This document shows, piece by piece, positions 18,328-54,601 of a DNA stretch of 64,000 nucleotides. Each line of letters begins with the position of its first letter. The first letter of the stretch is position 1. Position numbers and translations under genes: made by a program. Below the pieces are notes generated by a model, which did no database searches, had not been told where the DNA came from, and was given only the letters and a program-made list of their open reading frames with translations. The DNA comes from Streptosporangiaceae bacterium. GTDB taxonomy: Bacteria; Actinomycetota; Actinomycetes; Streptosporangiales; Streptosporangiaceae. The stretch spans positions 22,414 through 86,413 of the forward strand of contig DATJQX010000059.1 of assembly GCA_035505275.1 (NCBI GenBank), given 5' to 3'.

Positions 18328-19260
18328 ATGGATGACGTCGAGCTGCGCGAGCTCCGGTACTTCATCGCGGTCGGCGAGGAACTGAACTTCACCCGCGCCG
18401 CGGCACGCCTGGGCCTGGCCCAGCCGCCGCTCTCGGCGGCCATCGGCAAGCTCGAACGCAAGCTCGGCGTCCGGCTGCTTGAGCGCACCAGCCGCCGGGT
18501 CGCCCTGACCCCGGCCGGAGCCGTCCTGCTTGAACAAGGCCGGATCGCGGTCGAGGCGGCCGGCGCCGCGATCGAGCGAACCCGCAGGGCCGGAACCCAG
18601 CCCGCCCGCCTCACCGTCGCGGTCAAGCCGGGCACGGGCACCGACCTGCTCAGGAAGGTGGTCCGGCGCTGCGCCAGGGACCCGCGGATGCCGCGGCTGC
18701 ACGTCATGTTCGGCCACCCTGGCGGGCCCGCCGCCGCGGTCCGCGGCGGCGCCGCCGACGTCGCGATCCTGCGCGCCCCGTTCGACCGGCGCGGCCTGGA
18801 CACCGAACTACTCCTGACCGAACCCCGCCTGGCGGTCCTGCCCGCCGACCACCGCCTGGCCGGAAGAGCCGAACTGCGCCGCGCTGACCTGGCCGGCGAG
18901 CCGATGCCACGCTGGACCGGATCACCCGACCCGGCCGCCGCCGCGCACTGGATCGGCGCCGACACCCCAGGCCTGGCCGACGGCACCCCCGACGGCCCGC
19001 TGGACGGTCCCGAGATCAACGACATCAGCCAGCTCATGGCCGCTGTCACCCTCGGCAACGCCGTCGCCTACCTGCCAGCTTCGTTCGCGCACCAGCACCG
19101 CTCCGCCGACCTGGCCTTCGTGCCGGTCACCGACCTGAGCCCGAGCGAGGTCATGGTGGCCTGGCCGTCCACCAGCCGCTCGCGCGCCGTGGCCGCCTTC
19201 GTCCGCGCCGCCGTCGAGGCCGCCGCCGCCCACGCCGGCCAGCCCGCGGCCCTGGCCTGA
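18328..19260 (+). CDS. LysR family transcriptional regulator
   Basis: ATG 18328 gives MDDVELRELRYFIAVGEELNFTRAAARLGLAQPPLSAAIGKLE. The gene is divergent from the SDR gene. Confidence 0.85.
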   Translation: MDDVELRELRYFIAVGEELNFTRAAARLGLAQPPLSAAIGKLERKLGVRLLERTSRRVALTPAGAVLLEQGRIAVEAAGAAIERTRRAGTQPARLTVAVKPGTGTDLLRKVVRRCARDPRMPRLHVMFGHPGGPAAAVRGGAADVAILRAPFDRRGLDTELLLTEPRLAVLPADHRLAGRAELRRADLAGEPMPRWTGSPDPAAAAHWIGADTPGLADGTPDGPLDGPEINDISQLMAAVTLGNAVAYLPASFAHQHRSADLAFVPVTDLSPSEVMVAWPSTSRSRAVAAFVRAAVEAAAAHAGQPAALA

Positions 19261-34835: not shown

Positions 34836-36131
34836 CTACGCCTCCGCCGAACCGCCCAGCGTCCGTTCCGCCCCGCGCACCACCGCACCATCCTCCACGC
34901 TGACCACCACGAACCCGCTGAACCCGTCCGCCTCGAGCCGCCTCAACTGAGCCCCGAACTTCCCGCTTCGCCGCACCGTCTCAACCACGCGTCCGGCCCC
35001 GTAAACCCCGCGCAGTTCCCGCGCCACTTCCAGCGCGTCCGCCACCGGCACGTCCGGCTCCACCAGCACCGCCACCGCGTCCCGCGAGGGCCGGCGGGCC
35101 AGCAGGTCCGCGATCCGCTCGAATCCGATCGAGAACCCGCACGCCGGAACGTCTCGCCCCAGCGACCGCCCGATCAGCTTGTCGTACCGCCCGCCTCCGG
35201 CCACCGAACCGCTCATGTCCGGGTGGATGATCTCGAACACCTGCCCGGTGTAATACCCGAGCCCCCGCACAAGCGTCGGGTCGAAACGCCAGCTCAGCGC
35301 CCGTTCGGCCGCCAGCCGGTCCAGGCATGCGGCCGTATCAGCCAGGTCCGACACGACCTCCGCAGGCAGCTTAGGCAGGCGGTCAAGCAAGGCCCCGGCC
35401 AGCCGAGAACCGGGCACGCCCTCCAGACCCTGGATCGTCTCCTGCACCGCAGAGACCACCGCAGCGTCGAACCCGAGCTCGGCCAGTTCGGCCCGCACCC
35501 CGTCCCACCCGATCTTGTCCAGCTTGTCGACCGTGATAAAGAACGACTCCCAGGCCTCAGCAGGAACCCCGCACTCCTCGGCCAGCGCCGAAAGGAACCG
35601 CCGGTCCGACACCCTCACCACAGTGCCCGAAAGCCCCACCGCCGCCAGCGCCGCGCTGGTCGCCTCGATCAGTTCCGCCTCCGCGAGCACGGAAGCCTCG
35701 CCGATCATGTCGATGTCGCACTGGTAGAACTGCCGGTACCGCCCCCGCTGCGGCCGCTCCGCCCGCCACACCGGTCCCACCTGCAACGACCGGAACGGCA
35801 GCGGCAGCGACGCGTGGTTGTGCCCGTAGAACCGGCTCAGCGGCATGGTCAGGTCGTACCGCAGCCCGAGGTCGACCAGGTCCCGCAGCGGAGTATCGGC
35901 GCCGACCGAAGCAGGCAGCCCCCGCCGCAGCACCCAGTAGGCAAGCTTCTCGTTCTCCCCGCCCTGCCCGCTCGTCAGCCGCGCGATGTCCTCCAGCGCC
36001 GGCGTCTCGATCCGCTGGTACCCGAACCGCCGGTACACCGCCGCGACCGACTCCAGCACACGGTCACGGACCGCGACGTCAGCAGGCAGCAGATCCCGCA
36101 TCCCCCTGGCCGGGCTGTTATCGATCTTCAT
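34836..36131 (-). CDS. hisS: Histidine--tRNA ligase, archaeal/eukaryal-like subtype
   Basis: ATG 36131 gives MKIDNSPARGMRDLLP. It carries LRYDLTMPLSRFY, motif 2 WRAERPQRGRYRQFYQCDIDMIG, and motif 3 GGGRYDKLIG. Confidence 0.85.
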   Translation of the reverse strand: MKIDNSPARGMRDLLPADVAVRDRVLESVAAVYRRFGYQRIETPALEDIARLTSGQGGENEKLAYWVLRRGLPASVGADTPLRDLVDLGLRYDLTMPLSRFYGHNHASLPLPFRSLQVGPVWRAERPQRGRYRQFYQCDIDMIGEASVLAEAELIEATSAALAAVGLSGTVVRVSDRRFLSALAEECGVPAEAWESFFITVDKLDKIGWDGVRAELAELGFDAAVVSAVQETIQGLEGVPGSRLAGALLDRLPKLPAEVVSDLADTAACLDRLAAERALSWRFDPTLVRGLGYYTGQVFEIIHPDMSGSVAGGGRYDKLIGRSLGRDVPACGFSIGFERIADLLARRPSRDAVAVLVEPDVPVADALEVARELRGVYGAGRVVETVRRSGKFGAQLRRLEADGFSGFVVVSVEDGAVVRGAERTLGGSAEA

Positions 36132-36292
36132 TGAGGCCTTCCGCACATGAGGTACCGAGCACGACACCGCCAGCGCACGGCGGCACACGCAATGCTAGGT
36201 GAGCGTCTCGGGTGTTCGCCTCTAGATTTTCCCGCAGGACGTGGGAGGTGAGGCCGGCGCGCAGTGGTGCGCCCCGGCCCGCCTGAAAGATT

Positions 36293-36368
36293 GCGGAAGA
36301 TCCGTGCTCCGCGGAAGATTGGGCGCCGTATTTGACGCCTTTTCCTCCGTCAAGCACGGATCTTCCGC
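36293..36368. repeat. Perfect 16-bp inverted repeat (GCGGAAGATCCGTGCT / AGCACGGATCTTCCGC) with 44-nt spacer, plus an extra direct GCGGAAGAT copy, in the hisS 5' region
   Basis: The arms are at 36293-36308 and 36353-36368. The third GCGGAAGAT copy is at 36311-36319. Confidence 0.8.
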
Positions 36369-36418
36369 CGTAAATCCCAGATACGTCGAATTCCCGATCG
36401 AAGGGGCGCCCAAGACAT

Positions 36419-36790
36419 TTAGGCCGAACGATCGGTGGTGCCACTCCCGGGGACACCGCCGACCTCAGGACCGCGCCGCGCCAGCACCAGGGCTCCGACC
36501 TGGAACCCGAGCAGAACGCACAGCACCGCGGGCGTAATAACGTCCCGCACCCCGGGCACCCAGTCCGCCGCCAGCCCGCTAGCGGCCACGCCCCCCAGCA
36601 CCCCGAACACGACCGCCCCCGCCACCGGCCAGACCACCAGCCCCACAGGCTTGGACGCCCAGTAACAGTGCTCGGCCGAGCCGAAGTGCAAAGGCACCCG
36701 CGCGTTCGAGGCCAACGTGAAACAAGCGCGCCCGGACGCCGCGATCATCGCCAGCAGGAGCACCCCGCCCACCGCCAGCGACGCCGTCAC
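36419..36790 (-). CDS. Hypothetical membrane protein
   Basis: 123 aa with high GC3 and 3-4 hydrophobic helices. No family is recognised. Confidence 0.5.
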   Translation of the reverse strand: MTASLAVGGVLLLAMIAASGRACFTLASNARVPLHFGSAEHCYWASKPVGLVVWPVAGAVVFGVLGGVAASGLAADWVPGVRDVITPAVLCVLLGFQVGALVLARRGPEVGGVPGSGTTDRSA

Positions 36791-37040
36791 GACGTCAGGC
36801 TATCGAAAGCGACGGCAGGTTAGCGGGGACTTAACCGGCCATGGGCATCGGCCGCATTGTGCCCGACGGACTCGATGCCGCATCGCGCGCCGTCATAACT
36901 GGCTGGTAGCAATAACCTGCCCATTGGCAGCCTGCAAGCCGAAATGGAGTGTGCCGGTGCTGCCTTTTCAAGTACGAACTTTCCGCTCATTGAGGCCCGC
37001 CCCCCGATGGTCCATAGTCAGAGAATGAGGTCGACCTCCG

Positions 37041-37913
37041 GTGACGGTGAGCCGCGCCATGCGGGTCATTGAGCTGTCCAACCACCCCGGCGACATGCTG
37101 AACGACGTCGCCCGGCGACGCCGGGCCGCGGACACGAAAGCGCACTCGGCGTACGAGGACGCGCTGATCCAGCATCAAGCCAAGGTCCGGGCCGTGCGGG
37201 TCAAGCGCGACCGGGCGCGTAAGCAGCACCAGTGGTGGACCTGGCTGCGGCTGGCGCTCGCCCTCTTGGCCCAGAAACGCCGAGCGCCCAGTCCGCCGGG
37301 CCCGAGCACCGAGCCCACCGATGCCGAGGAGAAGATCAGGGCCGGGATCGCCGGCGAGCAGCTGGTCGCTACCGAGCTCGGCCGCGCGCTGACCGACGAC
37401 TGGACGCTGCTGCGCGGGTACCGCAACCGGCGCGGCGAGATCGATCACCTTCTCCTGGGCCCGAAGGGGCTGTTCGCCATCGAGGTCAAGAACGTCAACG
37501 CCACCGTGCACGTCGACGGCGGCACCTGGCGGGCCGACAAGTACGACAACTACGGCAACCTCGTGGAGCAGTACCAGATCACCGACCGGAAGGGCCGCTC
37601 GCCGAGCGAGCAGCTCAACGAATCCGCCGACGAGCTGGAACGCTTCCTGCGCGACCGCGGCCAGCCCGTAAGAGCCCAGCGCGTCGTGGTCCTCACCCAC
37701 CGCCGGTCCCGGCTCGCCGCCGCCAGCCGCCCCACGGTCAACGTCGGAACCTCGACCGGCTACCTACTCCACCTCGCCGACGACTCACCCGACCATCTCG
37801 ACGAGAAACAGCGCACCGAGCTCCAGCGCCTCATCCGGCGCGACCACGACTTCCACGAGAGAACTCGCCGTAAGCCCGGTCCGCAGAACCAGCGCACGAA
37901 CCGCGGCCACTGA
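37041..37913 (+). CDS. NERD (nuclease-related) domain protein
   Basis: 290 aa. The core GEQLVATELGRAL...GEIDHLLLGPKGLFAIEVKN is typical of NERD, and an N-terminal hydrophobic helix WWTWLRLALALLA is present. An alternative start is ATG 37059. Confidence 0.7.
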   Translation: MTVSRAMRVIELSNHPGDMLNDVARRRRAADTKAHSAYEDALIQHQAKVRAVRVKRDRARKQHQWWTWLRLALALLAQKRRAPSPPGPSTEPTDAEEKIRAGIAGEQLVATELGRALTDDWTLLRGYRNRRGEIDHLLLGPKGLFAIEVKNVNATVHVDGGTWRADKYDNYGNLVEQYQITDRKGRSPSEQLNESADELERFLRDRGQPVRAQRVVVLTHRRSRLAAASRPTVNVGTSTGYLLHLADDSPDHLDEKQRTELQRLIRRDHDFHERTRRKPGPQNQRTNRGH

Positions 37914-37999
37914 ACGGCGTTCGTCAAAAGCGCAACCCCCACCGCCACGCCTACCGGGCAAACGGGCCAGAATCGGTAGACGAGGGAGGCCCGAACACC

Positions 38000-40900
38000 A
38001 TGACCGAACGCCATGCGCCGTCGAGTTCTCCAGGAGGACGGGGCCGGCTCGCCCAGGTCATCGCGACGCGGGGAGGCCTGGCGCCGCCCGAGGCCCCGTT
38101 CGTGATCGAGCACCGCGAGGCGCTGATCTACATGCTGTGCGAGGCCGCCGAGCTCGAGCACGGCATCATGTGCCAGTACCTGTACGCCGCGTTCTCGCTG
38201 AAGCAGTCCGAAGCCGAGGGCCTGACCGCGACCGAACTAGAAGCCGTCCAACGCTGGCGCAAGCAAATATCGCACGTGGCCACCCAGGAGATGCTGCACT
38301 TGTCCCTGGTCCAGAACCTGCTGTCCGCCATCGGCTGCGCGCCGCACCTGTCCCGGTCGAACTTCCCGCACCCGGCCAGCAACTACCCGGCGGGCGTCCA
38401 CCTGGCGCTGGTCCCGTTCGGCGAGACCGCCCTTCAGCACTTCATGTTCCTTGAGCGCCCGGAGGGCATGGACCTGGACGACGCCCAGGGGATGGCCGCG
38501 TTCGGCCGTGCCCGGCCCGCCATGCAGAAAACCGAGATCGTAGCCCGCGGCCAGGACTTCGCCACCGTCGGGCACCTGTACCGGTCGATCGAGGCCGGGA
38601 TCGCCCACCTGGCCGACAAGTTCGGCGAGCGGTGGCTGTTCGTCGGCCCGCCGCGGGCCCAGGCGACGGAGCAGTATTTCGTCTGGCCCGAACTGGTCGC
38701 GGTGACCGATGTCGCCTCCGCGCAGCAGGCCATCGACGAGATCCTCGAGCAGGGCGAGGGCCCGCGCGGGGACTGGAAGGACGCCCACTTCGGCCAGTTC
38801 GTCGAGATCCTGGACGAGTACACCCAGCTCCGCGACGCCAACCCGGCCTTCGACCCGGTCCGCCCGGTGGTCACGGTCAACGTGCGCCCGGCCGTGCGAG
38901 AGACCGACATCCCGCTGGTCACCGACCCGCTGACCCGTCAGGTCATGGACCTGTTCAACGTCGCCTACGAGATCCTGCTGCTGATGCTGCAGCGCTTCTT
39001 CGTCCACACCGAGGAGACCGACGCGCAGCTCAAGGCGCTGGCCGACGCCACCGTCGCGCTCATGTACCAGGCCATCAAGCCGCTCGGCGACCTGGTGACC
39101 ACGCTCCCGGCGGGCCCGGACTACCCGGGCCGCACGGCCGGCCCCAGCTTCGAGCTGTTCTACGAGACCGATTACGTGCTCCCGCACCGCGAAGCGGCCT
39201 GGATCCTGCTCACCCACCGCATCCGCCAGGCCGCCGACTTCTGCGAGCCCGGGATGCCGTGCGCCCCGCAGGTCGCGGGGGACCTGGACGCGGTCAAGTC
39301 CAGCCTGACCGGGATCGCCGAGGCCCTCGAGGCGCACATGCCGGCCCGCGACGTCCGCCCGGCCGCCCCGGCCCCCGCTCCGCCTGACGTCCTGCCCGCC
39401 CTCCTAGCCCGCGCGGACGATATTTACCGAACGACCAGTGCTTTCACCGGTCACCCCAACGAACTCCTGTCCCACCTAGGCGACGCCGTGCGCTCAACGT
39501 ACCAGGCGGTGCTAGCCCACCAGGACGACTCCCGGGTGGTCGCCCGCCTCGTCGACAGCGTCCTGCGCCCGCTGGGCCAAGCGCTGAACGACGTGTCAGC
39601 CGCCCACCACATCGCTCCCGTCGCTCCCATCCCCGCCGAGCCCGCCCCCGCCCCTACCGCCGATGACCCCCTGTGGGACGCCGCGCACCACGTCACCCGG
39701 CTGCGGGCGCAGTTCGCCAACCACAGCCCGGACGGCCTGCTCGAGGCGGCCGCCGCGCTTCAGCACCTGGCCTGTGACCGGGCCTCGCCGGGAGAGCGGG
39801 CCCGCCGGATCGCCGTGCTGGCGGACCTGCAGAAGTCGCTGCGCCCCGCGATCGTCGTCGCGGAGAACGGCCCCTACCTGGTCACCAACGTCCCGGTGCG
39901 TGACCACCTCGGCGAGCGCCTCACCGTCCCGCCACAGGTGGCGTTCTGCCGGTGCGGCGCCTCGTCGATGAAGCCGTTCTGCGACGGCACCCATGCCACG
40001 AACGGGTTCACCGGCGCCAAGGACCCGGACCGCGTGCCCGACCGCCGCGACACCTACCCGGGCCAGCAGGTGACGATCTTCGACAACCGGGGCATCTGCC
40101 AGCACGCGGGACTGTGCACCGACCGGCTGCCCACGGCGTTCCGCACGGACAAGGAGCCGTTCGTCGCCCCCAGCGGCGCCCGGATGGACGAGCTCGTCCG
40201 GGCCGTCCGCGACTGCCCGTCCGGCGCGCTGAGCCTGGCCTTCGACGGCGAGGAGGCCCGCGGCCTGGCCGACTGGCACGGCCGGCGCGAGCGCGCCATC
40301 GAGATCACCCAGGACGGCCCCTACCGGGTGACCGGCGGCGTCCCGCTGGCCGGCGCGGCAAGCGCCGATCTGCCCCGCGCCGACGTACCCCGCGTCGCGG
40401 GCTCGTCCCGCGAGCACTACGCGCTCTGCCGGTGCGGTCACTCGCAGAACAAGCCGTTCTGCAGCGGCGCCCACTGGTACGCCGGCTTCCGCGACCCGGT
40501 GCGCCCGCCCGGCGCGGAGCCGAGCCTGTTCGACTGGGCCGGCGGGCTGCCCGCCCTGACCCGGATGACCCGCCTGCTGTACGAGAAGCACGTCCCCGCC
40601 GACGACCTGCTGGCCCCGCTGTTCGCCGCGATGCCACCCGACCAGCCACAGCGCGAGGCCGCCGTGCTGGCCGAGGCGTTCGGCGGACCCGCCCGGGACA
40701 GTTCCGCGGACCTGCGCCAGGATTTCACCGAACCGCAGCGGGCCCGCTGGGTCGCCCTGGCCACCCGGGCCGCTGACGAGGCAATGCTGCCTGCCGACCC
40801 CGCGTTCCGCGCGGCCCTGTCGTCTTACCTGGAGTGGAGCTCGCACGCCAATGGCACGACCCCGCTCCCGTGGGACTGGAGCCCGGCAGGCCCGCCCGCC

Positions 40901-41182
40901 GAGGAGCCGGCCCAGGCCAGCACCGACACGACCGAGGAGGTCACGTTGCCAGGACCCGACGAGACGGTGAGCTTCGAGGCCAACGTCAAGCCGCTGTTCC
41001 GCGAGAAGGACAGGCAATCCATGGCCCGCGCGTTCGACCTGTGGTCCCGCGACGACGTCCAGGCGCACGCCGCGGCCATCCTCACCCACCTCAGCAACGG
41101 CACCATGCCCTGCGACGGCGCCTGGCCGCCCGAGAAGGTCGAGGTCTTCCGGCGCTGGACCGAATCCGGCTTCCAGCCCTAG
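38000..41182 (+). CDS. Large multidomain redox-type protein: ferritin-like domain + CDGSH + divergent 4Fe-4S + CDGSH + truncated-globin-like + conserved C-terminal domain
   Basis: 1060 aa behind a GGGAGG RBS. N-terminus: ALIYMLCEAAELEHGIMCQYLYAAFSL...QEMLHLSLVQNLL (ferritin-like). Further domains: CRCGASSMKPFCDGTH and CRCGHSQNKPFCSGAH (CDGSH-type), GICQHAGLCTD...VRDCPSGAL (Cys cluster), then FDWAGGLPALTRMTRLLYEKH...AFGGP (globin-like). Confidence 0.85.
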   Translation: MTERHAPSSSPGGRGRLAQVIATRGGLAPPEAPFVIEHREALIYMLCEAAELEHGIMCQYLYAAFSLKQSEAEGLTATELEAVQRWRKQISHVATQEMLHLSLVQNLLSAIGCAPHLSRSNFPHPASNYPAGVHLALVPFGETALQHFMFLERPEGMDLDDAQGMAAFGRARPAMQKTEIVARGQDFATVGHLYRSIEAGIAHLADKFGERWLFVGPPRAQATEQYFVWPELVAVTDVASAQQAIDEILEQGEGPRGDWKDAHFGQFVEILDEYTQLRDANPAFDPVRPVVTVNVRPAVRETDIPLVTDPLTRQVMDLFNVAYEILLLMLQRFFVHTEETDAQLKALADATVALMYQAIKPLGDLVTTLPAGPDYPGRTAGPSFELFYETDYVLPHREAAWILLTHRIRQAADFCEPGMPCAPQVAGDLDAVKSSLTGIAEALEAHMPARDVRPAAPAPAPPDVLPALLARADDIYRTTSAFTGHPNELLSHLGDAVRSTYQAVLAHQDDSRVVARLVDSVLRPLGQALNDVSAAHHIAPVAPIPAEPAPAPTADDPLWDAAHHVTRLRAQFANHSPDGLLEAAAALQHLACDRASPGERARRIAVLADLQKSLRPAIVVAENGPYLVTNVPVRDHLGERLTVPPQVAFCRCGASSMKPFCDGTHATNGFTGAKDPDRVPDRRDTYPGQQVTIFDNRGICQHAGLCTDRLPTAFRTDKEPFVAPSGARMDELVRAVRDCPSGALSLAFDGEEARGLADWHGRRERAIEITQDGPYRVTGGVPLAGAASADLPRADVPRVAGSSREHYALCRCGHSQNKPFCSGAHWYAGFRDPVRPPGAEPSLFDWAGGLPALTRMTRLLYEKHVPADDLLAPLFAAMPPDQPQREAAVLAEAFGGPARDSSADLRQDFTEPQRARWVALATRAADEAMLPADPAFRAALSSYLEWSSHANGTTPLPWDWSPAGPPAEEPAQASTDTTEEVTLPGPDETVSFEANVKPLFREKDRQSMARAFDLWSRDDVQAHAAAILTHLSNGTMPCDGAWPPEKVEVFRRWTESGFQP

Positions 41183-41190
41183 GCCTTTCC

Positions 41191-41268
41191 TATATGTTCC
41201 CGTAGTACGGCAAACGAACTTTTCGCGGTCTGCTCCGGGAGCAGGTAGGGGCGGGGTCTGGTCGGGTA
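41191..41268 (+). promoter_or_regulatory. Conserved promoter/5' leader of kinase-WD40 paralogue 2
   Basis: tatatgttcccgtagta...cggtctgctccgggagcaggtaggggcggggtctggtcgggtaATG is near-identical to 45432-45503. Confidence 0.4.
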
Positions 41269-43290
41269 ATGGAGGGTCTTCGGCACGGTGATCCGGCCAG
41301 CGTGGGCGGCTACCAGCTGCTGGGCAGGCTGGGAGCCGGCGGGATGGGCCAGGTGTTCCTGGGGATCTCGCCGAGCGGCCGCCGGGTCGCGGTCAAGCTG
41401 ATCCATCCCGTCCACGCCGGGACCGAGCACTTCCGGGAGCGGTTCGCCAGGGAGATCGAGGCCGCCCGGCGAGTCGGGGGGTTTCACACGGCCCCCGTAG
41501 TCGACGCGGACCCGCACGCCGAAACGCCGTGGATGGTCACCGCCTACATCGACGGCCCTTCGCTGGAGGAGGCGGTCGCCCGGCACGGGCCGCTGCCGCC
41601 CGGGCAGGTGCGCGCGCTGGGCGCCGGGCTGGCCGAGGGGCTGGCGGCGATCCACGCGCATGGCCTCGTGCACAGGGACCTGAAGCCCGGCAACGTGATC
41701 ATGGCCGAGGACGGCCCGCGGATCATCGACTTCGGGATCGCCCGGGCGATCGGCGCGACCGCGCTGACCACGGCCGGCTCGGTGGTGGGCACGTTCGCGT
41801 ACATGTCTCCCGAGCAGGTCCGCGGCAATCCGGTCCTGCCGGTCAGCGATGTGTTCTCCCTCGGCTCCGTGCTGGCGTTCGCGGCGACCGGCCGGCCCCC
41901 GTTCGGCAGCGACACCGCCGCCACGGTCATGTTCCGCATCGTCAGCCAGCCGCCCGACCTGGGTGGCCTGGCCGACCAGGACCTCCGCACGCTGATCGAG
42001 GCCTGCCTGGCCAAGTCTCCCGCCGATCGCCCGCAGCTACCGGCGGTCCTGGCCGCACTGACCGGCCGCGGCCCCGTGCCCGCCCCCGTCGTTCCCCGCA
42101 CGACCCCCGTCGCCGGCGGCCGCGACGCCCAGACCCGGACGCACCCGGGCACGAACCCGCCCGCGACCAGCACGCCCGGACCCCCGGTCCACGCCCGGCC
42201 CGCCGGCCGCCGGCCTCGCCGCCGGACCGTCACGCTCATCGCCGCCGTGGCCGTCCTCGCCGTGCTGGGGGCCGTGATTCCCATCCTGCTGACCAGCGGC
42301 AGCCCGGGGACGCCGGCCGGCCACGACCCGGGCACGGGATCCAGCCCGGGCGGCGCCGTCGCGGCGCGGGACTTTACCGTGCAACTCCCGGCCAACGCAG
42401 AAGCCAACGACCTGGCGTTCAGCCCGGACGGCAGGTTCCTGGCCATCGGCGCAGAAAATACCGGGGCTACCTACCTGTGGGATGTCGCCACCGACAAGCA
42501 AGCCGCCATCCTCAAGGTGCGCGGCAGCAGCAGCATCACCAGCGTGGCGTTCAGCCCGGATGGCAAGCTCCTGGCCAGTGCCAACGCGAACGGCCAGGTC
42601 TTCCTGTGGGACGTCCCCACCGGGACGCTGGTCGCCACCCTGACCAGCCCGGGTAGCGGCGAGGCGGACGGGGTGGCGTTCAGCCCGGACGGCACGCTCC
42701 TGGCCATCGGCCAGGGCAACCGTCAGGTCTACGTATGGAGCGTGGCTACCCGCCGGGTTGATCGCACCTTCAGCGCCGCGAGCAACATCAACGGGGTCGC
42801 GTTCAGCCCGGACGGCCAGTTTCTCGCCGGCGCCGGCCTGCCCGCGATCATCTGGAACGTTGCCACCGGCCAGCGATACGCCGCCTTCTACGACCCGCAC
42901 GGCCAGAACGCCGGGAACGTCGCGTTCAGCCCGGACGGCAAGGTGCTCGCCGTGGTCGACGGGAACGAAAGGACCTACCTGTGGGACGTGGCGAGCGGCA
43001 ATGTCATCGCCACGCTTGTCGTCGCGACCCACCCGTTCGTCTTGGCCACCTACAACGAATCGGTGGCGTTCAGCCCCGATGGCAAGCTCCTGGCGACCGG
43101 CGACTCCTACTCCCACGTCTACCTGTGGAACGTCGCCACCGGTAAGGTCGTCGGCTCCATAATCGACCCGAGGCAATCTGGCTTCTGGGGGGTGGCGTTC
43201 AGCCCAGACGGTCGTCTGGTCGCCGCCGCCAACGGGGACGGCACCGTCTGGGTCCGGGTGGTCAGCCAGCTTGTGGGACCTGGTGGGTAA
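41269..43290 (+). CDS. Receptor-type Ser/Thr kinase with WD40 propeller, paralogue 2
   Basis: 673 aa with a Hanks kinase core, a Pro-rich linker, a TM helix (VTLIAAVAVLAVLGAVIPILL) and 7 AFSPDG blades. Confidence 0.9.
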   Translation: MEGLRHGDPASVGGYQLLGRLGAGGMGQVFLGISPSGRRVAVKLIHPVHAGTEHFRERFAREIEAARRVGGFHTAPVVDADPHAETPWMVTAYIDGPSLEEAVARHGPLPPGQVRALGAGLAEGLAAIHAHGLVHRDLKPGNVIMAEDGPRIIDFGIARAIGATALTTAGSVVGTFAYMSPEQVRGNPVLPVSDVFSLGSVLAFAATGRPPFGSDTAATVMFRIVSQPPDLGGLADQDLRTLIEACLAKSPADRPQLPAVLAALTGRGPVPAPVVPRTTPVAGGRDAQTRTHPGTNPPATSTPGPPVHARPAGRRPRRRTVTLIAAVAVLAVLGAVIPILLTSGSPGTPAGHDPGTGSSPGGAVAARDFTVQLPANAEANDLAFSPDGRFLAIGAENTGATYLWDVATDKQAAILKVRGSSSITSVAFSPDGKLLASANANGQVFLWDVPTGTLVATLTSPGSGEADGVAFSPDGTLLAIGQGNRQVYVWSVATRRVDRTFSAASNINGVAFSPDGQFLAGAGLPAIIWNVATGQRYAAFYDPHGQNAGNVAFSPDGKVLAVVDGNERTYLWDVASGNVIATLVVATHPFVLATYNESVAFSPDGKLLATGDSYSHVYLWNVATGKVVGSIIDPRQSGFWGVAFSPDGRLVAAANGDGTVWVRVVSQLVGPGG

Positions 43291-45374
43291 TGGAGGGTCT
43301 TCAGCGCGGTGATCCGGCCAGCGTGGGCGGCTACGTGCTGCTAGGCAGGCTGGGGGCCGGCGGGATGGGCCAGGTGTTCCTGGGGGTCTCCCCTAGCGGC
43401 CGCCGGGTCGCGGTCAAGCTGATCCATCCGGTGCACGCCGGGACCGGGCATTTCCGCGAGCGGTTCGCCAGGGAGGTCGCGGCGGCCAGGCGAGTCGGGG
43501 GCTTTCACACGGCCCCGGTGGTCGACGCCGACCCGCACGCCGCAACGCCGTGGATGGTCACCGCTTACATCGAAGGCCCGTCGCTCCAGCAGGCGATCGG
43601 ATGGCACGGGCCCCTGCCGCCCGGCGGAGTACGCGCGCTGGGCGCCGGCCTTTCCGAGGGGCTGGCCGCGATCCACGCGCACGGCCTGGTCCACCGGGAC
43701 CTGAAGCCCGGCAACGTGATCATGGCCGAGGACGGCCCGCGGATCATCGACTTCGGGATCGCCCGCGCGATCGGCGCGACCGCGCTGACCAGTGCCGGCG
43801 CGGTGGTGGGCACGTTCGCGTACATGTCTCCCGAGCAGGTCCGCGGCGATCCGGTCATGCCGCCGAGCGACGTGTTTTCCCTGGGCTCGGTGCTGGCGTT
43901 CGCCGCGACCGGCCGGCCCCCGTTCGGCACCGACACGGCCGCCACCGTCATGTTCCGCATCGTCAGCCAGCCGCCGGACCTGGCTGGCCTGGCCGACCAG
44001 GACCTCCGCGCGCTGATCGAGGCCTGCCTGGCCAAGTCGCCGGAGGACCGGCCGTCGGTCGCGGCCGTCCTGGCCGCGCTCCTCGGCCGCGCCCCGCTAC
44101 CCCCCGTTACTCCGCGCCCCGCGCCAGCCCCCGACGGCCATGATCCCCTGGCCGGGGCACGCGCGCCGCGGGTGCCGCCCGGGACGAAGCCCGGCCCTGA
44201 CCGCCTCGCCGAACCCGGCACCGCCCCGTCAAGACCGGTCCCGCCCAGTACGGATCCGCCTGGCACGGTCCCGTTCCCGACGCTCCCGCCCGGCTCGGCG
44301 GTGCACGCTCACCCCGCCGGCCGCCGGCCCGGCCGTCGGCCCGGCCGCCGGCTCGGCCGCCGGCCCGCTGCGTTCATCGCGGCCGCGGCCGTCATCGCCG
44401 TGCTCGCCGCCGTCCTTCCCGTCCTGCTGACCAGCGGCCGCCCGGGCCAGGCAGGACCGACCGCGGGCCCCAGCCTGGGCAGCACCATCCCGGAGCGCTA
44501 CCTCCGCATAACGCCCCCGGGCAGCGCTCAGCCTTACACCGTCGCGCTGAGCCCTGACGGCGGGCTCCTGGCCGTCGGCGGCGAGTTCTGGGGGTCCACC
44601 TACCTGTACGACGCCGCCACCGGCAAGCTGGCCGCCACCCTTAAGGTACGCGGCAGCGGCCCCATCACCGACGTCGCGTTCAGCCCGGACGGCAAACTCC
44701 TGGCCAGCACCGACGGCAACCGGATCTTCCTATGGGACGTCCCCGCCGGGAAGCTCGCCGCCACCCTGACCAACGCGGGCGGCAGCGGGCTGGCGTTCAG
44801 CCCGGACGGTCAGTTCCTGGCCACCGGTGATGGCAGGAACGTCGACGTGCGGTACGTGGCCAGCCGCCGGATTACCTTCACCTCCAAAGTCGTCGCGAGC
44901 GGCATCAGCGCGGTGGCGTTCAGCCCGGACGGCAAGCTCCTGGCCGCCGCCGGAGCTCCGGCCTTCCTATGGGATGTCGCCACCGGCCAGCGCGTTGCCG
45001 CCCTCTACGATCCAGGCGGGTATGGCGACGATGACGTCGCGTTCAGCCCGGACGGCAAGCTCCTGGCCGTTGCCGACCACAAGGGCATCACCTACCTATG
45101 GAACGTCGCCACGCACGGCCTCATCGCCACCCTTCCTGACTCCGGGCCGAACTCACAAGAGAACCTGGTGGCGTTCAGCCCTGACGGCAAGCTGCTGGCC
45201 ACGGCCAACGGCGACCTGTGGAACGTCGCGACCAGAAAGCTCGCCGGCAGCATCGCCGGCCCAGGCGGGTGGCACTTCGCGAGCGTGTCGTTCAGCGCCG
45301 ACGGCAGGCTCGTCGCCGCCGCCGACTGGAACGGTCCCGTCTTTGTCCGCGTCGTCAGCCAGCTCGTCTCCTGA
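43290..45374 (+). CDS. Receptor-type Ser/Thr kinase with WD40 propeller, paralogue 3
   Basis: 694 aa. Its ATG overlaps the paralogue 2 stop (TAATG). The kinase domain is about 90% identical to paralogue 2 by eye. It has a TM helix and 7 blades. Confidence 0.9.
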   Translation: MEGLQRGDPASVGGYVLLGRLGAGGMGQVFLGVSPSGRRVAVKLIHPVHAGTGHFRERFAREVAAARRVGGFHTAPVVDADPHAATPWMVTAYIEGPSLQQAIGWHGPLPPGGVRALGAGLSEGLAAIHAHGLVHRDLKPGNVIMAEDGPRIIDFGIARAIGATALTSAGAVVGTFAYMSPEQVRGDPVMPPSDVFSLGSVLAFAATGRPPFGTDTAATVMFRIVSQPPDLAGLADQDLRALIEACLAKSPEDRPSVAAVLAALLGRAPLPPVTPRPAPAPDGHDPLAGARAPRVPPGTKPGPDRLAEPGTAPSRPVPPSTDPPGTVPFPTLPPGSAVHAHPAGRRPGRRPGRRLGRRPAAFIAAAAVIAVLAAVLPVLLTSGRPGQAGPTAGPSLGSTIPERYLRITPPGSAQPYTVALSPDGGLLAVGGEFWGSTYLYDAATGKLAATLKVRGSGPITDVAFSPDGKLLASTDGNRIFLWDVPAGKLAATLTNAGGSGLAFSPDGQFLATGDGRNVDVRYVASRRITFTSKVVASGISAVAFSPDGKLLAAAGAPAFLWDVATGQRVAALYDPGGYGDDDVAFSPDGKLLAVADHKGITYLWNVATHGLIATLPDSGPNSQENLVAFSPDGKLLATANGDLWNVATRKLAGSIAGPGGWHFASVSFSADGRLVAAADWNGPVFVRVVSQLVS

Positions 45375-45431
45375 CGGCCGAGCCACCACCCTATTTCCGG
45401 CTGAAGCCGGGGTCCGGGTCGCCGTTGGCGG

Positions 45432-45503
45432 TATGTTCCTGTGTTAATGCAGCCGTTTCTTACGGTCTGCTCCGGGAGCGGATGGGGCGGGTCTGGTCGG
45501 GTC
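45432..45503 (+). promoter_or_regulatory. Conserved promoter/5' leader of kinase-WD40 paralogue 4
   Basis: tatgttcctgtgtta...cggtctgctccgggagcggatggggcgggtctggtcgggtcATG. Confidence 0.4.
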
Positions 45504-47588
<2,085 letters not shown>

Positions 47589-47884
47589 CCGCCTGGCGGC
47601 CGGCAACCGCGGCCGCGGCGGGCACGTCCTCGGCTGGCACCGCATCCGGAGCCTGCTCCCCGCCAGCAGCCGCCGAACGCCCGGCCGGACCCGGATCCTT
47701 CCAAACGCCGCCGCCCGCGGTGGGCACCGGGGAATTCGCCGGGCCGCGCGTCCGATCCCGTGCGAATCGTCGGCAGGCTGTTCGCGGGCGCCTGGCCGAA
47801 CTACTGCGGTTACATCGACTGGCGAGATCAGTTCGCCTGGTACAGCTGATCACACCGACCGGACTGCCCGCCGTATGGACACGT

Positions 47885-48427
47885 TCAGGCGCCGGGGGTG
47901 CTGACCGGCGCGCCGGCCCCAGCCGGCGGGGGAGTCCTCCGCTGCGGGCGGAGCGCGATCACCGCGCAGGCCGCGGCGACCACCGTGCCGAGCGTGGAAG
48001 CGCCGCTTTCGAGGGAACCCACATTCACCCCGCCGGAATGCCGTTCGGCAACGGTCCTGGTCGTGGTCACGGTGACCACGACCGTGGTCGGCGCGGGTGA
48101 GGAGGAGGGCACTGGAGTTGACCCCGGTGACGGGGAAGGCGCAGGAGGCGTCATGGTGAGGGTGATTGGGACTTTGACGATCTTCACGACTCCGGAGGCG
48201 GGCTGCGTTGTCGAGCGGGTGAACGCGAGAGCGCCAAAGACGACCGCCACCACCACGAACATCCCCGCCGAGCCCAGGAGCACCAAGCGCCTCCGGTCAA
48301 GGTGCATCACCCGGTGCGGGCCCGCGACGAGGCCGTCACGCGTCGGGGATGGGGGCGTCATACCTGCCACGTTAGACCTTCCGCCGGTGCGCAGACAGGC
48401 GCGGCCGCCGGAGCGGATCCTGGACAC
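47885..48427 (-). CDS. Hypothetical membrane protein with a Pro/Thr/Ser-rich middle region and hydrophobic C-terminus
   Basis: The maximal ORF is 180 aa and the likely start is Met23 or Met41. It has an N-terminal TM helix (LVLLGSAGMFVVVAVVFGALAF) and a C-terminal hydrophobic stretch plus RPQRR tail. Confidence 0.4.
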   Translation of the reverse strand: MSRIRSGGRACLRTGGRSNVAGMTPPSPTRDGLVAGPHRVMHLDRRRLVLLGSAGMFVVVAVVFGALAFTRSTTQPASGVVKIVKVPITLTMTPPAPSPSPGSTPVPSSSPAPTTVVVTVTTTRTVAERHSGGVNVGSLESGASTLGTVVAAACAVIALRPQRRTPPPAGAGAPVSTPGA

Positions 48428-48498
48428 CGGGTGGCGACATCGCTACCGCACGGACCGCTACACTAGCCCTGCTGGCCTGCGGTGACGCTGAGGAGACC

Positions 48499-48618
48499 AT
48501 GGTGGGCGGACGGCATATGGCGCCGAAGCCCGGCAACGACGTGTTCATGGCCGTGACCATCCTCGTCCTGCTCGCCGTCCTGGCCGCGGTAGTCATCCCC
48601 GCCGCGCTCGGCATGTGA
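48499..48618 (+). CDS. 39-aa small hydrophobic peptide upstream of lysK
   Basis: A GAGGAG RBS lies 6 nt before the ATG. The sequence is MVGGRHMAPKPGNDVFMAVTILVLLAVLAAVVIPAALGM, with very high GC3. It is below the ORF-track size cut-off. Confidence 0.4.
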   Translation: MVGGRHMAPKPGNDVFMAVTILVLLAVLAAVVIPAALGM

Positions 48619-48700
48619 GCAGCAACCGTCTCCGGCACCGTCATATTAAGCCCGAACGGGCGCTGGTTTCCGTTCACCATCCCCTGGCACGTGGACAGCG

Positions 48701-50395
48701 GTGCACCGCGCCGGCCCCGGTACGCTGATGCCTGCAGAACAGGGAGGTGGCCGTCTCGTGGCTGCGGCGGACGACTGGGTGGCGCGCACGGCTGGTGAGG
48801 TGTGCGCCGAGGGGGAGCGCCGGCATCCCGGCGAGGCTCCGACCTGTGCGTCGGGGATCAGCCCGTCCGGGCGCGTGCACCTGGGGAACCTGCGCGAGCT
48901 GATGGTCCCGCACCTGGTCGCCGACGAGGTCCGCCGCCAGGGCGCGCCCTGCCGTCACATCCTGTCCTGGGACGACTATGACCGCTTCCGCCGGGTCCCG
49001 GCCGGCCTGCCGGAGGAGTTCGCCGAATACGTCGGCCGGCCGCTGACTTCGGTGCCCGATCCGTGCGGCCTGCACGAGAACTGGGCCGAGCACTTCAAGG
49101 AGCCGTTGCGCGAAGCGCTGGACCGCCTGGGCGTGCAGGTCACCGAGATCAGCCAGACCGAGATGTACACGGGCGGGGCCTACGCGGCGCAGATCGTGAC
49201 CGCGATGCGCCGCCGGGCCGACATCGAGGCGGTGCTGGCCAGGTACCGGACCAAGCGCGCGGCCGGCCCGGACGACGACGAACCGCAGGCGGCGGTCTAC
49301 TATCCGTTCCGCCCTTACTGCTCGGCCTGCGGGCGCGATGACACGACGGTGACCGCCTTCGACGACGAGACGACGGACATCACCTACACCTGCGCGTGCG
49401 GCGCGGTGGTGGGTCCCACGCCGATCGTGCAGGTCGCGGGCAAGCTGGTCTGGAAGGTCGACTGGCCGATGCGCTGGGCGTACGAGCACGTGACGTTCGA
49501 GCCCGCCGGGGTCGACCACTCCACGCCCGGGTCGAGCTTCACCGTGGGTGCGGAACTGGTCTCGGAGATCTTCGGCGGGCAGACGCCGCTGCACTTCGGG
49601 TACTCCTTCGTCGGCACGCAGGGGTCGGCGAAGATGAGCAGTTCCCGTGGCGGCGCGCCGACCCCCGCCGACGCGCTGGAGATCTTCGAGGCCCCGCTGG
49701 TGCGCTGGCTGTACGCGCGCCGGCGCCCCGAGCAGTCCATCACGCTGGCCTTTGACGCCGAGGTCGGCCGGGTCTACGACGAGTGGGACGCCCTGTCCCG
49801 CAAGGTCGCGGAGGGCACCGCCGACCCGGCCGCCCGGGTGATCTTCGTCCGCGCGTCCGGCCCGGCCGAGGGGCCGCTCCCGGTCACGCCGCGCCCGCTG
49901 CCGTTCCGCACCCTGGCCTCGGTCGCCGACATCACGGCCGGCGACCCGACGCAGATCCTGCGGATCGTGCGCGATCTCACCGCCGGTGACCCGGTCGCCG
50001 ACCTGGACGAGGTGCGCCCGAGGCTGGACTGCGCGCAGGCGTGGATCACCGACTACGCGGCGCCCGAGGACCGGACGCAGGTCCGCGATCACCCGGACAC
50101 CGCCAGGCTCGCCACGCTCACCGACGAGGAGCGCGGCGCCCTCAAGCTGCTCATCGACGGCATGGCGGCCGACTGGTCCCTGGACGGCCTGACCACCCTG
50201 CTGTACGGGATCCCCAAGCTCCAGCGCGGCCTGCCGATCTCGGCACCCCCGACGCCGGAGCTGAAGGCCAGCCAGCGGCACTGGTTCATCCTGCTGTACG
50301 AGCTGCTCATCGGCAAGGACACCGGCCCGCGGCTGCCGACGCTGCTGCTGGCCCTCGGCCAGGACCGGGTGCGCTCCCTGATCACGGACCAGTGA
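48701..50395 (+). CDS. lysK: Lysine--tRNA ligase, class I
   Basis: It has a HIGH-type motif GISPSGRVHLGNLRE and a KMSKS-type motif KMSSSRGG. The start is uncertain: ATG 48701, ATG 48728, or GTG 48758 behind GGGAGG. Confidence 0.85.
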   Translation: MHRAGPGTLMPAEQGGGRLVAAADDWVARTAGEVCAEGERRHPGEAPTCASGISPSGRVHLGNLRELMVPHLVADEVRRQGAPCRHILSWDDYDRFRRVPAGLPEEFAEYVGRPLTSVPDPCGLHENWAEHFKEPLREALDRLGVQVTEISQTEMYTGGAYAAQIVTAMRRRADIEAVLARYRTKRAAGPDDDEPQAAVYYPFRPYCSACGRDDTTVTAFDDETTDITYTCACGAVVGPTPIVQVAGKLVWKVDWPMRWAYEHVTFEPAGVDHSTPGSSFTVGAELVSEIFGGQTPLHFGYSFVGTQGSAKMSSSRGGAPTPADALEIFEAPLVRWLYARRRPEQSITLAFDAEVGRVYDEWDALSRKVAEGTADPAARVIFVRASGPAEGPLPVTPRPLPFRTLASVADITAGDPTQILRIVRDLTAGDPVADLDEVRPRLDCAQAWITDYAAPEDRTQVRDHPDTARLATLTDEERGALKLLIDGMAADWSLDGLTTLLYGIPKLQRGLPISAPPTPELKASQRHWFILLYELLIGKDTGPRLPTLLLALGQDRVRSLITDQ

Positions 50396-52948: not shown

Positions 52949-54601
52949 GTGGCTCGCGAGCCTCTGCTGAACAGCGACCCCACGCGGGTCGGGCGCTACC
53001 GCCTGTCCGCGCGGCTGGGCTCGGGCGGGATGGGCGTCGTGTACCTCGGCGCGGCCGAGGACGGACGCCAGGTCGCGGTGAAGGTGGTGCGCCCGCAACT
53101 GGCGCAGGACCAGGAGTTCCGGAAGCGGTTCGGCCGTGAGGTGGCCGCGCTGGTCCGGGTCAGTGGCGTGTGCACGGTGCGGGTCATCGAGGCCGACACC
53201 ACCTCGGCCCGGCCGTTCCTGGTCACCGAGTACGTCGACGGGCCGTCGCTCGCCGAGTACATCGACGGGCGCGGGCCTCTCGGCAGCCGGATGCTGTACG
53301 GCCTGGCGACCGGGCTCGCGGAGGCGCTGACCGCGATCCACGACGCCGGCATAGTGCACAGGGACCTCAAGCCCTCCAACGTGCTCCTCAGCGGGAGCGG
53401 GCCGAAGGTTATCGACTTCGGAATCGCCCAGCCGCTGGACGCGACCGCCCTGACCAGGCCGGGAGTGACGATCGGCTCGACCGGGTTCGTGGCGCCCGAG
53501 CAGATCACGGGCGGCCGGTCAGGCACGGCGGCCGACATCTTCGCCTGGGGCGTGACGATCGCCTACGCAGCCAGCGGGCAGCCCCCGTTCGGTACGGGCA
53601 CCCCCGAGTCCATCCTCTACCGCGTCCTGCGCGTCGCCCCCGACCTCATCACGGTCCCGGCCGAACTGCGCCCGATGGTGGCGGCGGCCCTGGCCAAAGA
53701 GCCCGGGAACCGGCCGACCGCGCACGACCTGCTGGACCAGCTGACCAAGACATCCGCGCAGCCATCCCAGGCCACGCACACCATCCTCGCCCAGAACTGG
53801 CGCCCGCCCGAGCCCGGCCCCGCCGCCGGAGCCGCACGCCCACCTGCCCCTTCCCCCGCCGGCGGAGCGCCACGGCCACCTGCCCCTGCTCCGGCCGCCG
53901 GAGCCGTACGCCCATCCGCCTCCGCCCCCGCCGGCGGAGCGCCACGGCCACCTAGTCCTGCCCCGCCCGCCAGGGCCGCACGCCCGCCCGAGCCCGCCCG
54001 GGCCCCAGACGCCTTCGGTCCGACCGCCGAGACCGTGATCCCCCAGGCCTTCCGGAGCGCCGATCCGCCGCGGCCCCCGCAATCCTGGCCGCCTCAGCCG
54101 GCGTCCGGCGGGACGGGGCCGAAGCGCCCCGGACGCCGGCGTGTGATCCTGGGCGTGCTCGCGCTGTGCCTGGCGTTCGCGCTCGCCGCGGGCGGCACGG
54201 TGCTGGGCATCTCCCTGGCCGGGCACCACCCCAAGCCGGGCAAGGGCGGTACCTCGCCATCTGCCACCGCCACCTCGTCCGCGACCTCGGCCCTGCCGGT
54301 CCTCACCGCGGGCACCTACCACGGCGTCAAGCCGAAGGAGATCGACTTCAGCGCCGACGCGGGGAACGTCGTGACGGGCATCACCTGGTCCTCGTGGACC
54401 GCGACCACCGCAATCGGCTCCGGCACCTCCGACATCGACAGCTGCGTCCCGAGCTGCGCCGCGGCGCCAACCGATCTGGTCGCGACGACCCTGATGCTCT
54501 CCGACCCGGTGAACGGGCGGTTCACGGTGATCCGGGAGATGCGCGACAGCACCACGCAGGCGTTCGTCTATCCCAGTACCTGGGCGCTGGGCGCCTCCTA
54601 G
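52949..54601 (+). CDS. Ser/Thr protein kinase with Pro-rich repeat linker, one TM helix and a small extracytoplasmic domain
   Basis: 550 aa with a GTG start. Hanks motifs are ARLGSGGMGVVY, VAVK, HRDLKPSN and DFG. The TM helix is VILGVLALCLAFALAAGGTVLGI. Confidence 0.9.
   Translation: MAREPLLNSDPTRVGRYRLSARLGSGGMGVVYLGAAEDGRQVAVKVVRPQLAQDQEFRKRFGREVAALVRVSGVCTVRVIEADTTSARPFLVTEYVDGPSLAEYIDGRGPLGSRMLYGLATGLAEALTAIHDAGIVHRDLKPSNVLLSGSGPKVIDFGIAQPLDATALTRPGVTIGSTGFVAPEQITGGRSGTAADIFAWGVTIAYAASGQPPFGTGTPESILYRVLRVAPDLITVPAELRPMVAAALAKEPGNRPTAHDLLDQLTKTSAQPSQATHTILAQNWRPPEPGPAAGAARPPAPSPAGGAPRPPAPAPAAGAVRPSASAPAGGAPRPPSPAPPARAARPPEPARAPDAFGPTAETVIPQAFRSADPPRPPQSWPPQPASGGTGPKRPGRRRVILGVLALCLAFALAAGGTVLGISLAGHHPKPGKGGTSPSATATSSATSALPVLTAGTYHGVKPKEIDFSADAGNVVTGITWSSWTATTAIGSGTSDIDSCVPSCAAAPTDLVATTLMLSDPVNGRFTVIREMRDSTTQAFVYPSTWALGAS
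53822..53965 (+). repeat. 72-bp in-frame tandem repeat x2 (24-aa AAGA(A/V)RP...APAGGAPRPP.PAP units)
   Basis: Copies at 53822-53893 and 53894-53965 differ at a few positions. Confidence 0.85.

Follow-up and report, generated by a model that had tools for sequence, protein, structure and literature searches.

What is the function of a 1060-residue protein that carries ferritin-like, iron-sulfur (Fe-S) and globin-like domains in one chain, and does it serve the protein kinases encoded directly behind it? The question was raised by a 64,000-nt stretch of DNA (hereafter the window) from a Streptosporangiaceae bacterium, contig DATJQX010000059.1. The gene in question (38000..41182, + strand; hereafter the fusion gene) is complete, starts with ATG, and is followed on the same strand by three tandem genes for Ser/Thr kinase-WD40 proteins. 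An earlier note on this DNA had suggested that the fusion protein provides these kinases with a redox, iron or gas signal. The results below led us, with moderate confidence, to another reading: the fusion protein would be a soluble redox enzyme with several centres, whose Fe-S relay would supply the metal site of a ferritin-like domain, and not a kinase input module.

The fusion protein was found to be 100% identical to an NCBI entry from a metagenome-assembled genome (MAG), 'ferritin-like domain-containing protein [Streptosporangiaceae bacterium]'. In the NCBI search over 1400 homologues received a score, and the best 120 were all full length, with 72-84% identity. This excludes both an assembly chimera and an open reading frame (ORF) that arose by chance. 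A Shine-Dalgarno-like GGGAGG, read directly from the sequence, lies at 37984..37989 (+ strand), 10 nt 5' of the ATG.

The ORF and all the motifs quoted in the earlier note were present in the order given there: ELEH (residues 51-54), EMLH (97-100), CRCGASSMKPFCDGTH (650-665), GICQHAGLCTD (698-708), VRDCPSGAL (736-744), CRCGHSQNKPFCSGAH (810-825), FDWAGG...EAFGGP (844-897) and LRQDF (905-909). No transmembrane-like segment was detected (maximum KD19 = 1.29), and the protein is predicted to be soluble, as that note had proposed. A Pfam scan placed the Ferritin-like, CDGSH and Fer4_19 domains above their thresholds. An AlphaFold2 (AF2) model was built on a 60-sequence alignment, and reached a mean predicted local distance difference test score (pLDDT) of 81.4 and a predicted template-modelling score (pTM) of 0.55.

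The three Fe-S sites lie next to each other. Two zf-CDGSH domains (PF09360) scored 104.4 bits against a cut-off of 29.5, and they were assigned by this profile score together with the motif CxCx2(S/T)x3PxCDG(S/A/T)H, which provides three Cys and one His as ligands. CDGSH finger 1 (39848..40045, + strand; residues 617-682) has the full CxCxxSxxxPxCDGTH motif with ligands C650, C652, C661 and H665. CDGSH finger 2 (40313..40495, + strand; residues 772-832) has CSGAH in place of CDGSH, and its ligands C810, C812, C821 and H825 are all kept.

The divergent Cys-rich block between the two fingers turned out to be a Fer4_19 domain (PF06902; 60.6 bits, cut-off 24) for a single cluster, at 40055..40240 (+ strand; residues 686-747), with C700, C706, C739 (followed by Pro) and an invariant H702. 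The middle Cys of the CxxCxxC motif is replaced by Ala or Ser. Because of this replacement the cluster may be either 3Fe-4S, or 4Fe-4S with a non-Cys ligand.

In 60 diverse relatives and in 75 of 76 species-level proteins, each of the twelve Fe-S ligand positions was kept, the only common change being His to Cys in finger 1. C700, H702 and C739 were invariant, and C706 was Cys in 59 of the 60 relatives. The ligand set of finger 2 never varied, apart from one apparently frameshifted protein (L081) with Phe at C821. The finger-1 exchange affects H665 (window 39992-39994), which was Cys in 8 of the 60 diverse relatives and 22 of the 76 species-level proteins; the resulting four-Cys site would differ in its redox and pH behaviour.

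The order CDGSH-Fer4_19-CDGSH is known and ancient, and among the architectures already catalogued is one that joins it to a Ferritin-like domain (PMC5859297). The fusion protein agrees with Class II CDGSH proteins that have a central Fer4_19 domain, both in this order and in the intact three-Cys, one-His sets. Shorter relatives of about 660 residues show exactly this core. To it the fusion protein adds a helical insert of about 150 residues, a domain derived from truncated haemoglobin, and a C-terminal module.

The N-terminal part is the ferritin-like unit (38081..39349, + strand; residues 28-450). Its Pfam core (PF12902, residues 47-271) scored 147.7 bits against a cut-off of 22.3, and covered profile positions 2-220 of 221. 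Residues 30-450 are also matched by stand-alone proteins about 420 residues long, which indicates that the unit is larger than the Pfam core. The nearest solved structure is that of CC_0557 (PDB 3hl1), a structural-genomics protein with no assigned function. It was matched by Foldseek with E 4e-6 and a template-modelling (TM) score of 0.66-0.68, and by profile with E 2.4e-5; the profile alignment lined up the EEMLH, DY.TVG.LY (Y194) and QGEG motifs. The common fold and motifs, together with the Pfam score, upheld the ferritin-like assignment of the N-terminus. As a side observation, the N-terminal family profile also matched PDB 9viw_A, a 306-residue 'Bacterioferritin', with E 2.2e-5; the alignment takes in the helices with ELEH and EM.HL and a pair of helices further on. 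Besides CC_0557, this may be another PF12902-type relative with a solved structure.

The iminophenyl-pyruvate dimer synthases VioB, RebD and StaD share with CC_0557 and the fusion protein the PF12902 domain and the ELEH, EEMLH, DY.TVG.LY and QGEG motifs. Unlike the fusion protein, these enzymes have no Fe-S or globin domains and are encoded in biosynthetic clusters. The likeness to VioB was confined to its C-terminal third: the NCBIfam VioB model TIGR04492 matched residues 29-384 only, over positions 592-938 of its 1003, and with 75.5 bits fell far short of the cut-off of 1250. No full-length, above-cut-off match to this equivalog was obtained, and the N-terminal two thirds of VioB were not covered.

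Among 44 relatives of 33-51% identity, E53, Y60, E97, H100, E152, Y194, E253 and H263 of this unit were invariant, and H54 was nearly so. The complete set of nine was found in all 76 species-level proteins. We interpreted these residues as forming a putative metal site. With four Glu, three His and two Tyr, the set would be suited to a dinuclear metal centre. The canonical di-iron pattern, however, is only half present, as E53 in helix 1 and E97xxH100 in helix 2, and the invariant E152, E253 and H263 are located in insertions of the bundle. Since the classic second E / ExxH pair is missing, 'di-iron', the term used in the earlier note, went beyond what had been established.

Behind the second CDGSH finger lies a domain derived from group II truncated haemoglobin (40517..40849, + strand; residues 840-950), in which the B, E, G and H helices are kept and Tyr-B10 (Y861) and Trp-G8 (W917) are retained. 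When the window segment was run alone, no Pfam match was obtained at E <= 10 (Bac_globin went undetected), and THB1 appeared at E 0.19 only. Two relatives of about 46% identity (P0129 and P0135) reached 37 bits against Bac_globin (PF01152; cut-off 21). The family profile matched the trHbO structures 5d1v, 2bmm and 1ux8 with E 5e-11 to 7e-8, and over the group II truncated haemoglobins compared here (1ngk, 2bmm and 1ux8 included) the E values ranged from 5e-11 to 5e-4. The AF2 segment (pLDDT about 85-89) gave, by Foldseek, a TM score of 0.73 to T. fusca trHbO (2bmm) and up to 0.79 to group I truncated haemoglobins. Judged by these profiles and the predicted fold, the segment is a true group II truncated-haemoglobin homologue, and the globin-like call of the earlier note was right as a statement of homology.

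With trHbO (M. tuberculosis HbO, 1ngk; T. fusca, 2bmm; B. subtilis YjbI, 1ux8) the domain shares the 2-on-2 fold, Tyr-B10, Trp-G8, FxWxGG and FGGP. It differs from trHbO, which stands alone, in following an Fe-S module C-terminally, and in the lack of the F helix and the proximal His. Relatives with the F helix read 'GGP..Y..YGGY.RM.SQH.GK' at this place, including the proximal His. In the window protein 'Y..YGGY.RM.SQH.GK' is swapped for the shorter 'ARDSSADLRQD', within a loop (40679..40729, + strand; residues 894-910; GPARDSSADLRQDF) that is hypervariable among relatives, and the AF2 model predicted no F helix.

The distribution of the F helix was followed with loose sequence patterns, direct reading and an alignment-column test. 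The helix and its His were missing in all 18 sampled members of the window clade, in which a shorter variable loop was found instead. Among the 80 nearest species-level loci (of at least 591 listed), the haem His motif was kept in 15 and missing in about 60, a loss in about three quarters. Intermediates of the loss, such as 'AWYSQRFGG...' and 'RLISQGAG', also exist. Thus the doubt about haem binding voiced in the earlier note proved well founded, and its count of up to five cofactor sites has to be lowered to nearer four: three Fe-S sites and one putative metal site, the haem site being without its proximal His. It was also observed that in three relatives (L016, L077 and P0105) the F-loop is invaded by short tandem peptide repeats (VPVPPVPPV..., GPVVSGPVVSG..., AINRAAINRA...), which showed very relaxed constraint at that site.

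The rest of the globin domain has not decayed. The ratio of nonsynonymous to synonymous substitution rates (dN/dS), of which the absolute values are inflated by the codon bias of a 70% G+C genome so that only the comparison between domains is meaningful, was 0.27-0.29 for the remaining globin helices and 0.61 for the F-loop. The globin helices are therefore under purifying selection, and as constrained as the ferritin-like (0.34), CDGSH (0.31-0.33) and C-terminal (0.30) domains; the value for Fer4_19 was 0.19.

From these domains we propose the following scheme. The constant core would be an electron relay in cis, running from a CDGSH [2Fe-2S] cluster through the single Fer4_19 cluster to the second CDGSH [2Fe-2S] cluster. 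The relay would pass electrons between an external partner and the carboxylate- and His-ligated metal centre of the ferritin-like domain, which would be the catalytic site, with chemistry on O2, peroxide, nitric oxide or a small-molecule substrate. In the ancestral family, the second CDGSH finger would have been followed immediately by a group II truncated haemoglobin that bound haem and acted as a second terminal site. In the window clade this globin, having lost the F helix and proximal His, would survive as a haem-less, or non-canonically liganded, structural or binding domain. The identities of the domains, the conserved ligands, the missing F helix, the selection on the remaining domains and the absence of a conserved kinase linkage are results; the metal occupancy, the direction of electron flow, the catalytic end and the class of substrate are what we infer.

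Rubrerythrin, in which a ferritin-like metal site is fed by an Fe-S centre in cis and reduces peroxide, offers the closest analogy: a four-helix-bundle metal site would likewise be joined to Fe-S centres of the same chain. The fusion protein differs from it in having no Rubrerythrin or rubredoxin Pfam match, another ligand pattern, and three clusters instead of one Fe(Cys)4 site.

With one genome scanned per species, relatives were found in at least 591 genomes, in Actinomycetota, Ktedonobacteria and Dormibacterota, and the gene was single-copy in at least 591 species. Hosts include Streptosporangiaceae MAGs, Trebonia kvetii, several Nocardia species, Pseudonocardiaceae, Jatrophihabitantaceae, Acidimicrobiales, Solirubrobacterales and one Dormibacterota MAG. 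The form with the intact globin also occurs in Ktedonobacteria, such as Reticulibacter mediterranei.

When the 55 proteins that cover both the ferritin-like and globin sites were sorted, 23 had kept the nine-residue ferritin-like set and the haem His, and 20, of the window type, had kept the former and lost the latter. In another 12, mostly of the Ktedonobacteria type and about 900 residues long, the ferritin-like set was degraded and the haem His kept. None had lost both. This complementary loss is suggestive only, as the classes follow clades and the independent events are few.

It is possible, though we hold this tentatively and consider it rather doubtful, that the family is a 'two-headed' metalloenzyme, in which an invariant three-cluster relay serves, as alternative terminal redox sites, a VioB-type ferritin-like metal centre and the haem of a truncated haemoglobin. 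Individual lineages would then have given up either head, but none of them both, and the window protein would be a haem-less form with its globin fold re-used free of cofactor. If so, a function of the PF12902 ferritin-like domain would be available for the first time from outside the biosynthesis of indolocarbazoles and violacein, and the loss of haem by a globin could be studied in a natural series. The mirror image of the window protein was seen in Ktedonobacteria-type relatives of about 800-940 residues (P0129, P0288, P0271, P0306, P0330, P0340 and similar ones), in which the F helix is intact and several of the nine ferritin-like residues are lost; some of them also have no ferritin-like Pfam match.

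The link to the kinases was examined by comparison of gene neighbourhoods. In the window the order is a histidyl-tRNA synthetase (HisRS)-like gene (34836-36188, - strand), a NERD-domain gene directly upstream of the fusion gene (37041-37913, + strand), the fusion gene, the three kinase-WD40 genes (41269-47588), and a class I lysyl-tRNA synthetase (LysRS) gene (48701-50395, + strand). The gap between the fusion stop and the first kinase ATG (41269) is 86 nt, as noted before. A scan of 37000-48800 for promoters and terminators gave nothing above shuffled expectation and cannot decide co-transcription, and an Rfam scan of 36000-48800 gave no RNA family.

The 80 nearest loci were searched with the neighbour genes of the window. 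An adjacent kinase-WD40 gene was found in none of them, nor in any of seven further homologue contexts, and the WD40 part had no match within 10 kb in any of the 80. A kinase-domain match appeared only in two loci (L009 and L010), about 8 kb downstream, at a position that corresponds to a more distant window kinase beyond the LysRS gene (52958-53716; 46%). In the closest relative (L009, 85% identity) the synteny from HisRS and NERD through the fusion gene to LysRS was kept, and a DUF222 gene and a PD40 propeller occupied the kinase slot. In L010 a PD40 protein and an ACT protein were found there. Between the fusion gene and the LysRS gene there is thus a variable slot (window 41183-48700 against L009 13160-17120 and L010/L002), and beta-propeller proteins of different families were seen to recur in it.

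Among themselves the three window kinase domains share 86-89% identity, and 30 kb upstream there is a fourth paralogue (10619-12709; 73%). Together with the absence of the array from L009, this indicated a recent, lineage-specific tandem expansion in the variable slot. Downstream of the gene in the further contexts were a P-type ATPase, a STAND NTPase, small ORFs and similar genes, with nothing conserved. The order of the fusion gene and the kinases is an accident of one genome. By the condition that the earlier note had itself set, adjacency to kinase-WD40 genes in other genomes, the proposed input to the kinases fails.

The neighbour that did recur was a divergent LysR-type regulator immediately upstream, present in 14 of the 80 loci at 60-96% identity, as a remnant in one more, and as weaker LysR genes upstream in six. 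It was also present in three of the four homologue contexts inspected first. The type is generic, with only sub-threshold matches to AlsR, HcaR, CynR and OxyR. A recurrent divergent LysR gene fits an inducible enzyme gene. The divergent regulator itself was absent from the window and from L009; the window does encode a LysR-family protein elsewhere (18334-19164, + strand), but its identity to the regulator found beside the fusion gene elsewhere is only 32%.

Several observations weigh against our proposal of a relay-fed enzyme. The third and fourth bundle helices carry N320 and Y323 rather than E / ExxH, so that there is no canonical di-iron site. With a pTM of only 0.55, the AF2 model does not fix the arrangement of the domains or the distances from cluster to cluster. 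The polypeptide contains no flavin or NAD(P)H domain, and an external donor must therefore be assumed. Outside the LysR gene the neighbourhoods are not conserved, and hence give no clue to the substrate. The clade structure of the complementary losses also belongs here. A literature search on PF12902, on CDGSH with ferritin-like or globin domains, and on VioB with ferritin-like domains found no paper that characterises the architecture.

The other explanations were weighed on the same evidence. That the fusion protein is a redox, iron or gas sensor feeding the three downstream kinase-WD40 proteins was the idea of the earlier note: the genes share a strand and a short gap, no strong terminator separates the fusion gene from the first kinase, and redox cofactor domains are common as sensor inputs in general. 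It is nevertheless very improbable in view of the 80 loci, none of which has an adjacent kinase-WD40 gene, of the other genes found downstream in the further contexts, and of the recent local expansion of the array in a slot that L009 fills otherwise; the intergenic region is also relatively AT-rich, and could carry a promoter of its own. Attractive as it is, the link stems from the gene order of a single genome, and it should not be propagated. A sensor or regulator without kinase output, for example one that modulates the divergent LysR protein or another partner by contact, would account for the recurrence of the LysR gene upstream, for the conservation of a haem-less globin and a C-terminal module with no obvious catalytic role, and for the pH- and redox-sensitive CDGSH clusters, which are suited to sensing. 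But divergent LysR genes normally regulate their neighbour and not the reverse, the LysR gene is of a generic type and absent from the window and L009, and the invariant nine-residue Glu/His/Tyr site in a 420-residue domain resembles an active site. We regard this alternative as quite unlikely.

Two further alternatives keep a biochemical role for the metal sites. The fusion protein could handle iron or Fe-S clusters, with oxidation or storage of iron in the ferritin-like domain, and labile CDGSH clusters donated to client proteins or repaired in them, as has been proposed for NEET proteins. CDGSH proteins can transfer clusters as well as electrons (PMC5859297), and the ferritin-like fold gave weak Dps and bacterioferritin matches. 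The pair of bacterioferritin and Bfd is a textbook precedent for a 2Fe-2S protein that works with a ferritin. On the other hand, the unit is a monomeric domain of about 420 residues of the VioB/3hl1 type with large insertions, and not a cage-forming ferritin or Dps; the Dps matches stayed at TM about 0.46-0.66 with E > 0.1 by Foldseek; no iron-uptake or Suf/Isc genes recurred in the homologue contexts inspected; and the fused globin and strictly conserved chain of three clusters fit electron transfer better. This makes a role in iron or cluster handling unlikely. A natural-product oxidase like VioB, RebD and StaD, coupling or oxidising an aromatic imine-type substrate, is suggested by the fact that these three are the only characterised proteins with the domain, and by the TIGR04492 match. 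The score of that match lies far below its cut-off, however, with most of VioB absent, no biosynthetic cluster was found in any inspected context, and the gene is a single-copy one across hundreds of species, so that such an enzyme is hardly to be expected here. The multi-centre redox enzyme, with its Fe-S relay directed to the ferritin-like site, therefore remains the reading that we prefer.

All domains of the fusion protein with an assigned family belong to known ones, and the protein has already been annotated automatically: as 'ferritin-like domain-containing protein' at NCBI, and as 'CDGSH-type Zn-finger protein/truncated hemoglobin YjbI' at JGI. It is a haem-less-globin variant of an uncharacterised multi-domain family. 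Soil actinobacteria and Ktedonobacteria with this architecture number hundreds of species; culturable members of Nocardia and Trebonia kvetii are among them, and in these the family is open to experiment. The family offers a possible route to the function of PF12902, an unusual instance of a CDGSH/ferredoxin relay built directly onto candidate catalytic sites, and a graded natural series of haem-site loss in a globin still under selection.

The C-terminal module of about 70 residues that the earlier note described was located at 40949..41170 (+ strand; residues 984-1057). AF2 predicted five short helices with pLDDT 91, and the invariant residues include R1001, D1004, M1008, M1036, P1037, C1038, D1039, W1042 and W1053. 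The module matched no Pfam family, and Foldseek against the PDB gave no significant structural neighbour. A cytochrome-c-like fold without CxxCH was considered and rejected, as the model gave no cytochrome c among its PDB neighbours.

Its only known relative is the C-terminal tail (residues 659-710) of the fungal hemocyanin-like cyclopenase AsqI (PDB 5yy2), found by profile with E 2.4e-4. The two have the pattern F..I...F...DR..M....DL..Y..V..HADAIL......MP in common, and AsqI has Leu at the position of the invariant Cys1038. The tail is not discussed in the AsqI paper.

Between the ferritin-like unit and the first CDGSH finger is the helical insert (39377..39835, + strand; residues 460-612). 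The earlier note had taken this region for a low-complexity linker of about 200 residues. Most of it is a confidently predicted helical domain, with six AF2 helices within residues 464-610 (pLDDT mostly above 90), broken by a Pro/Ala-rich variable stretch at residues 536-556. The description as a linker holds only for residues 450-459 and about 536-556, to which the predicted disorder is limited. Run alone against Pfam, the segment gave noise matches only. It is the least conserved and fastest-evolving part of the protein, with dN/dS of 0.78-0.86, and 1.3 in the Pro/Ala stretch, on the comparative scale used above.

The NERD and kinase neighbours had also prompted the idea of a defence island. 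This was rejected: the PADLOC defence-protein models gave no match for the fusion protein, the kinase matches were generic, and the NERD matches were weak. The NERD gene was syntenic in 11 of the 80 loci, and its product resembled the N-terminal parts of two defence kinases, PglW and MAD6, weakly and below threshold. Genes of the aminoacyl-tRNA-synthetase type were found clustered in the same syntenic block, namely the HisRS-like and class I LysRS genes and, in one locus (L005, 5405-6877), a gene for cysteinyl-tRNA synthetase (CysRS).

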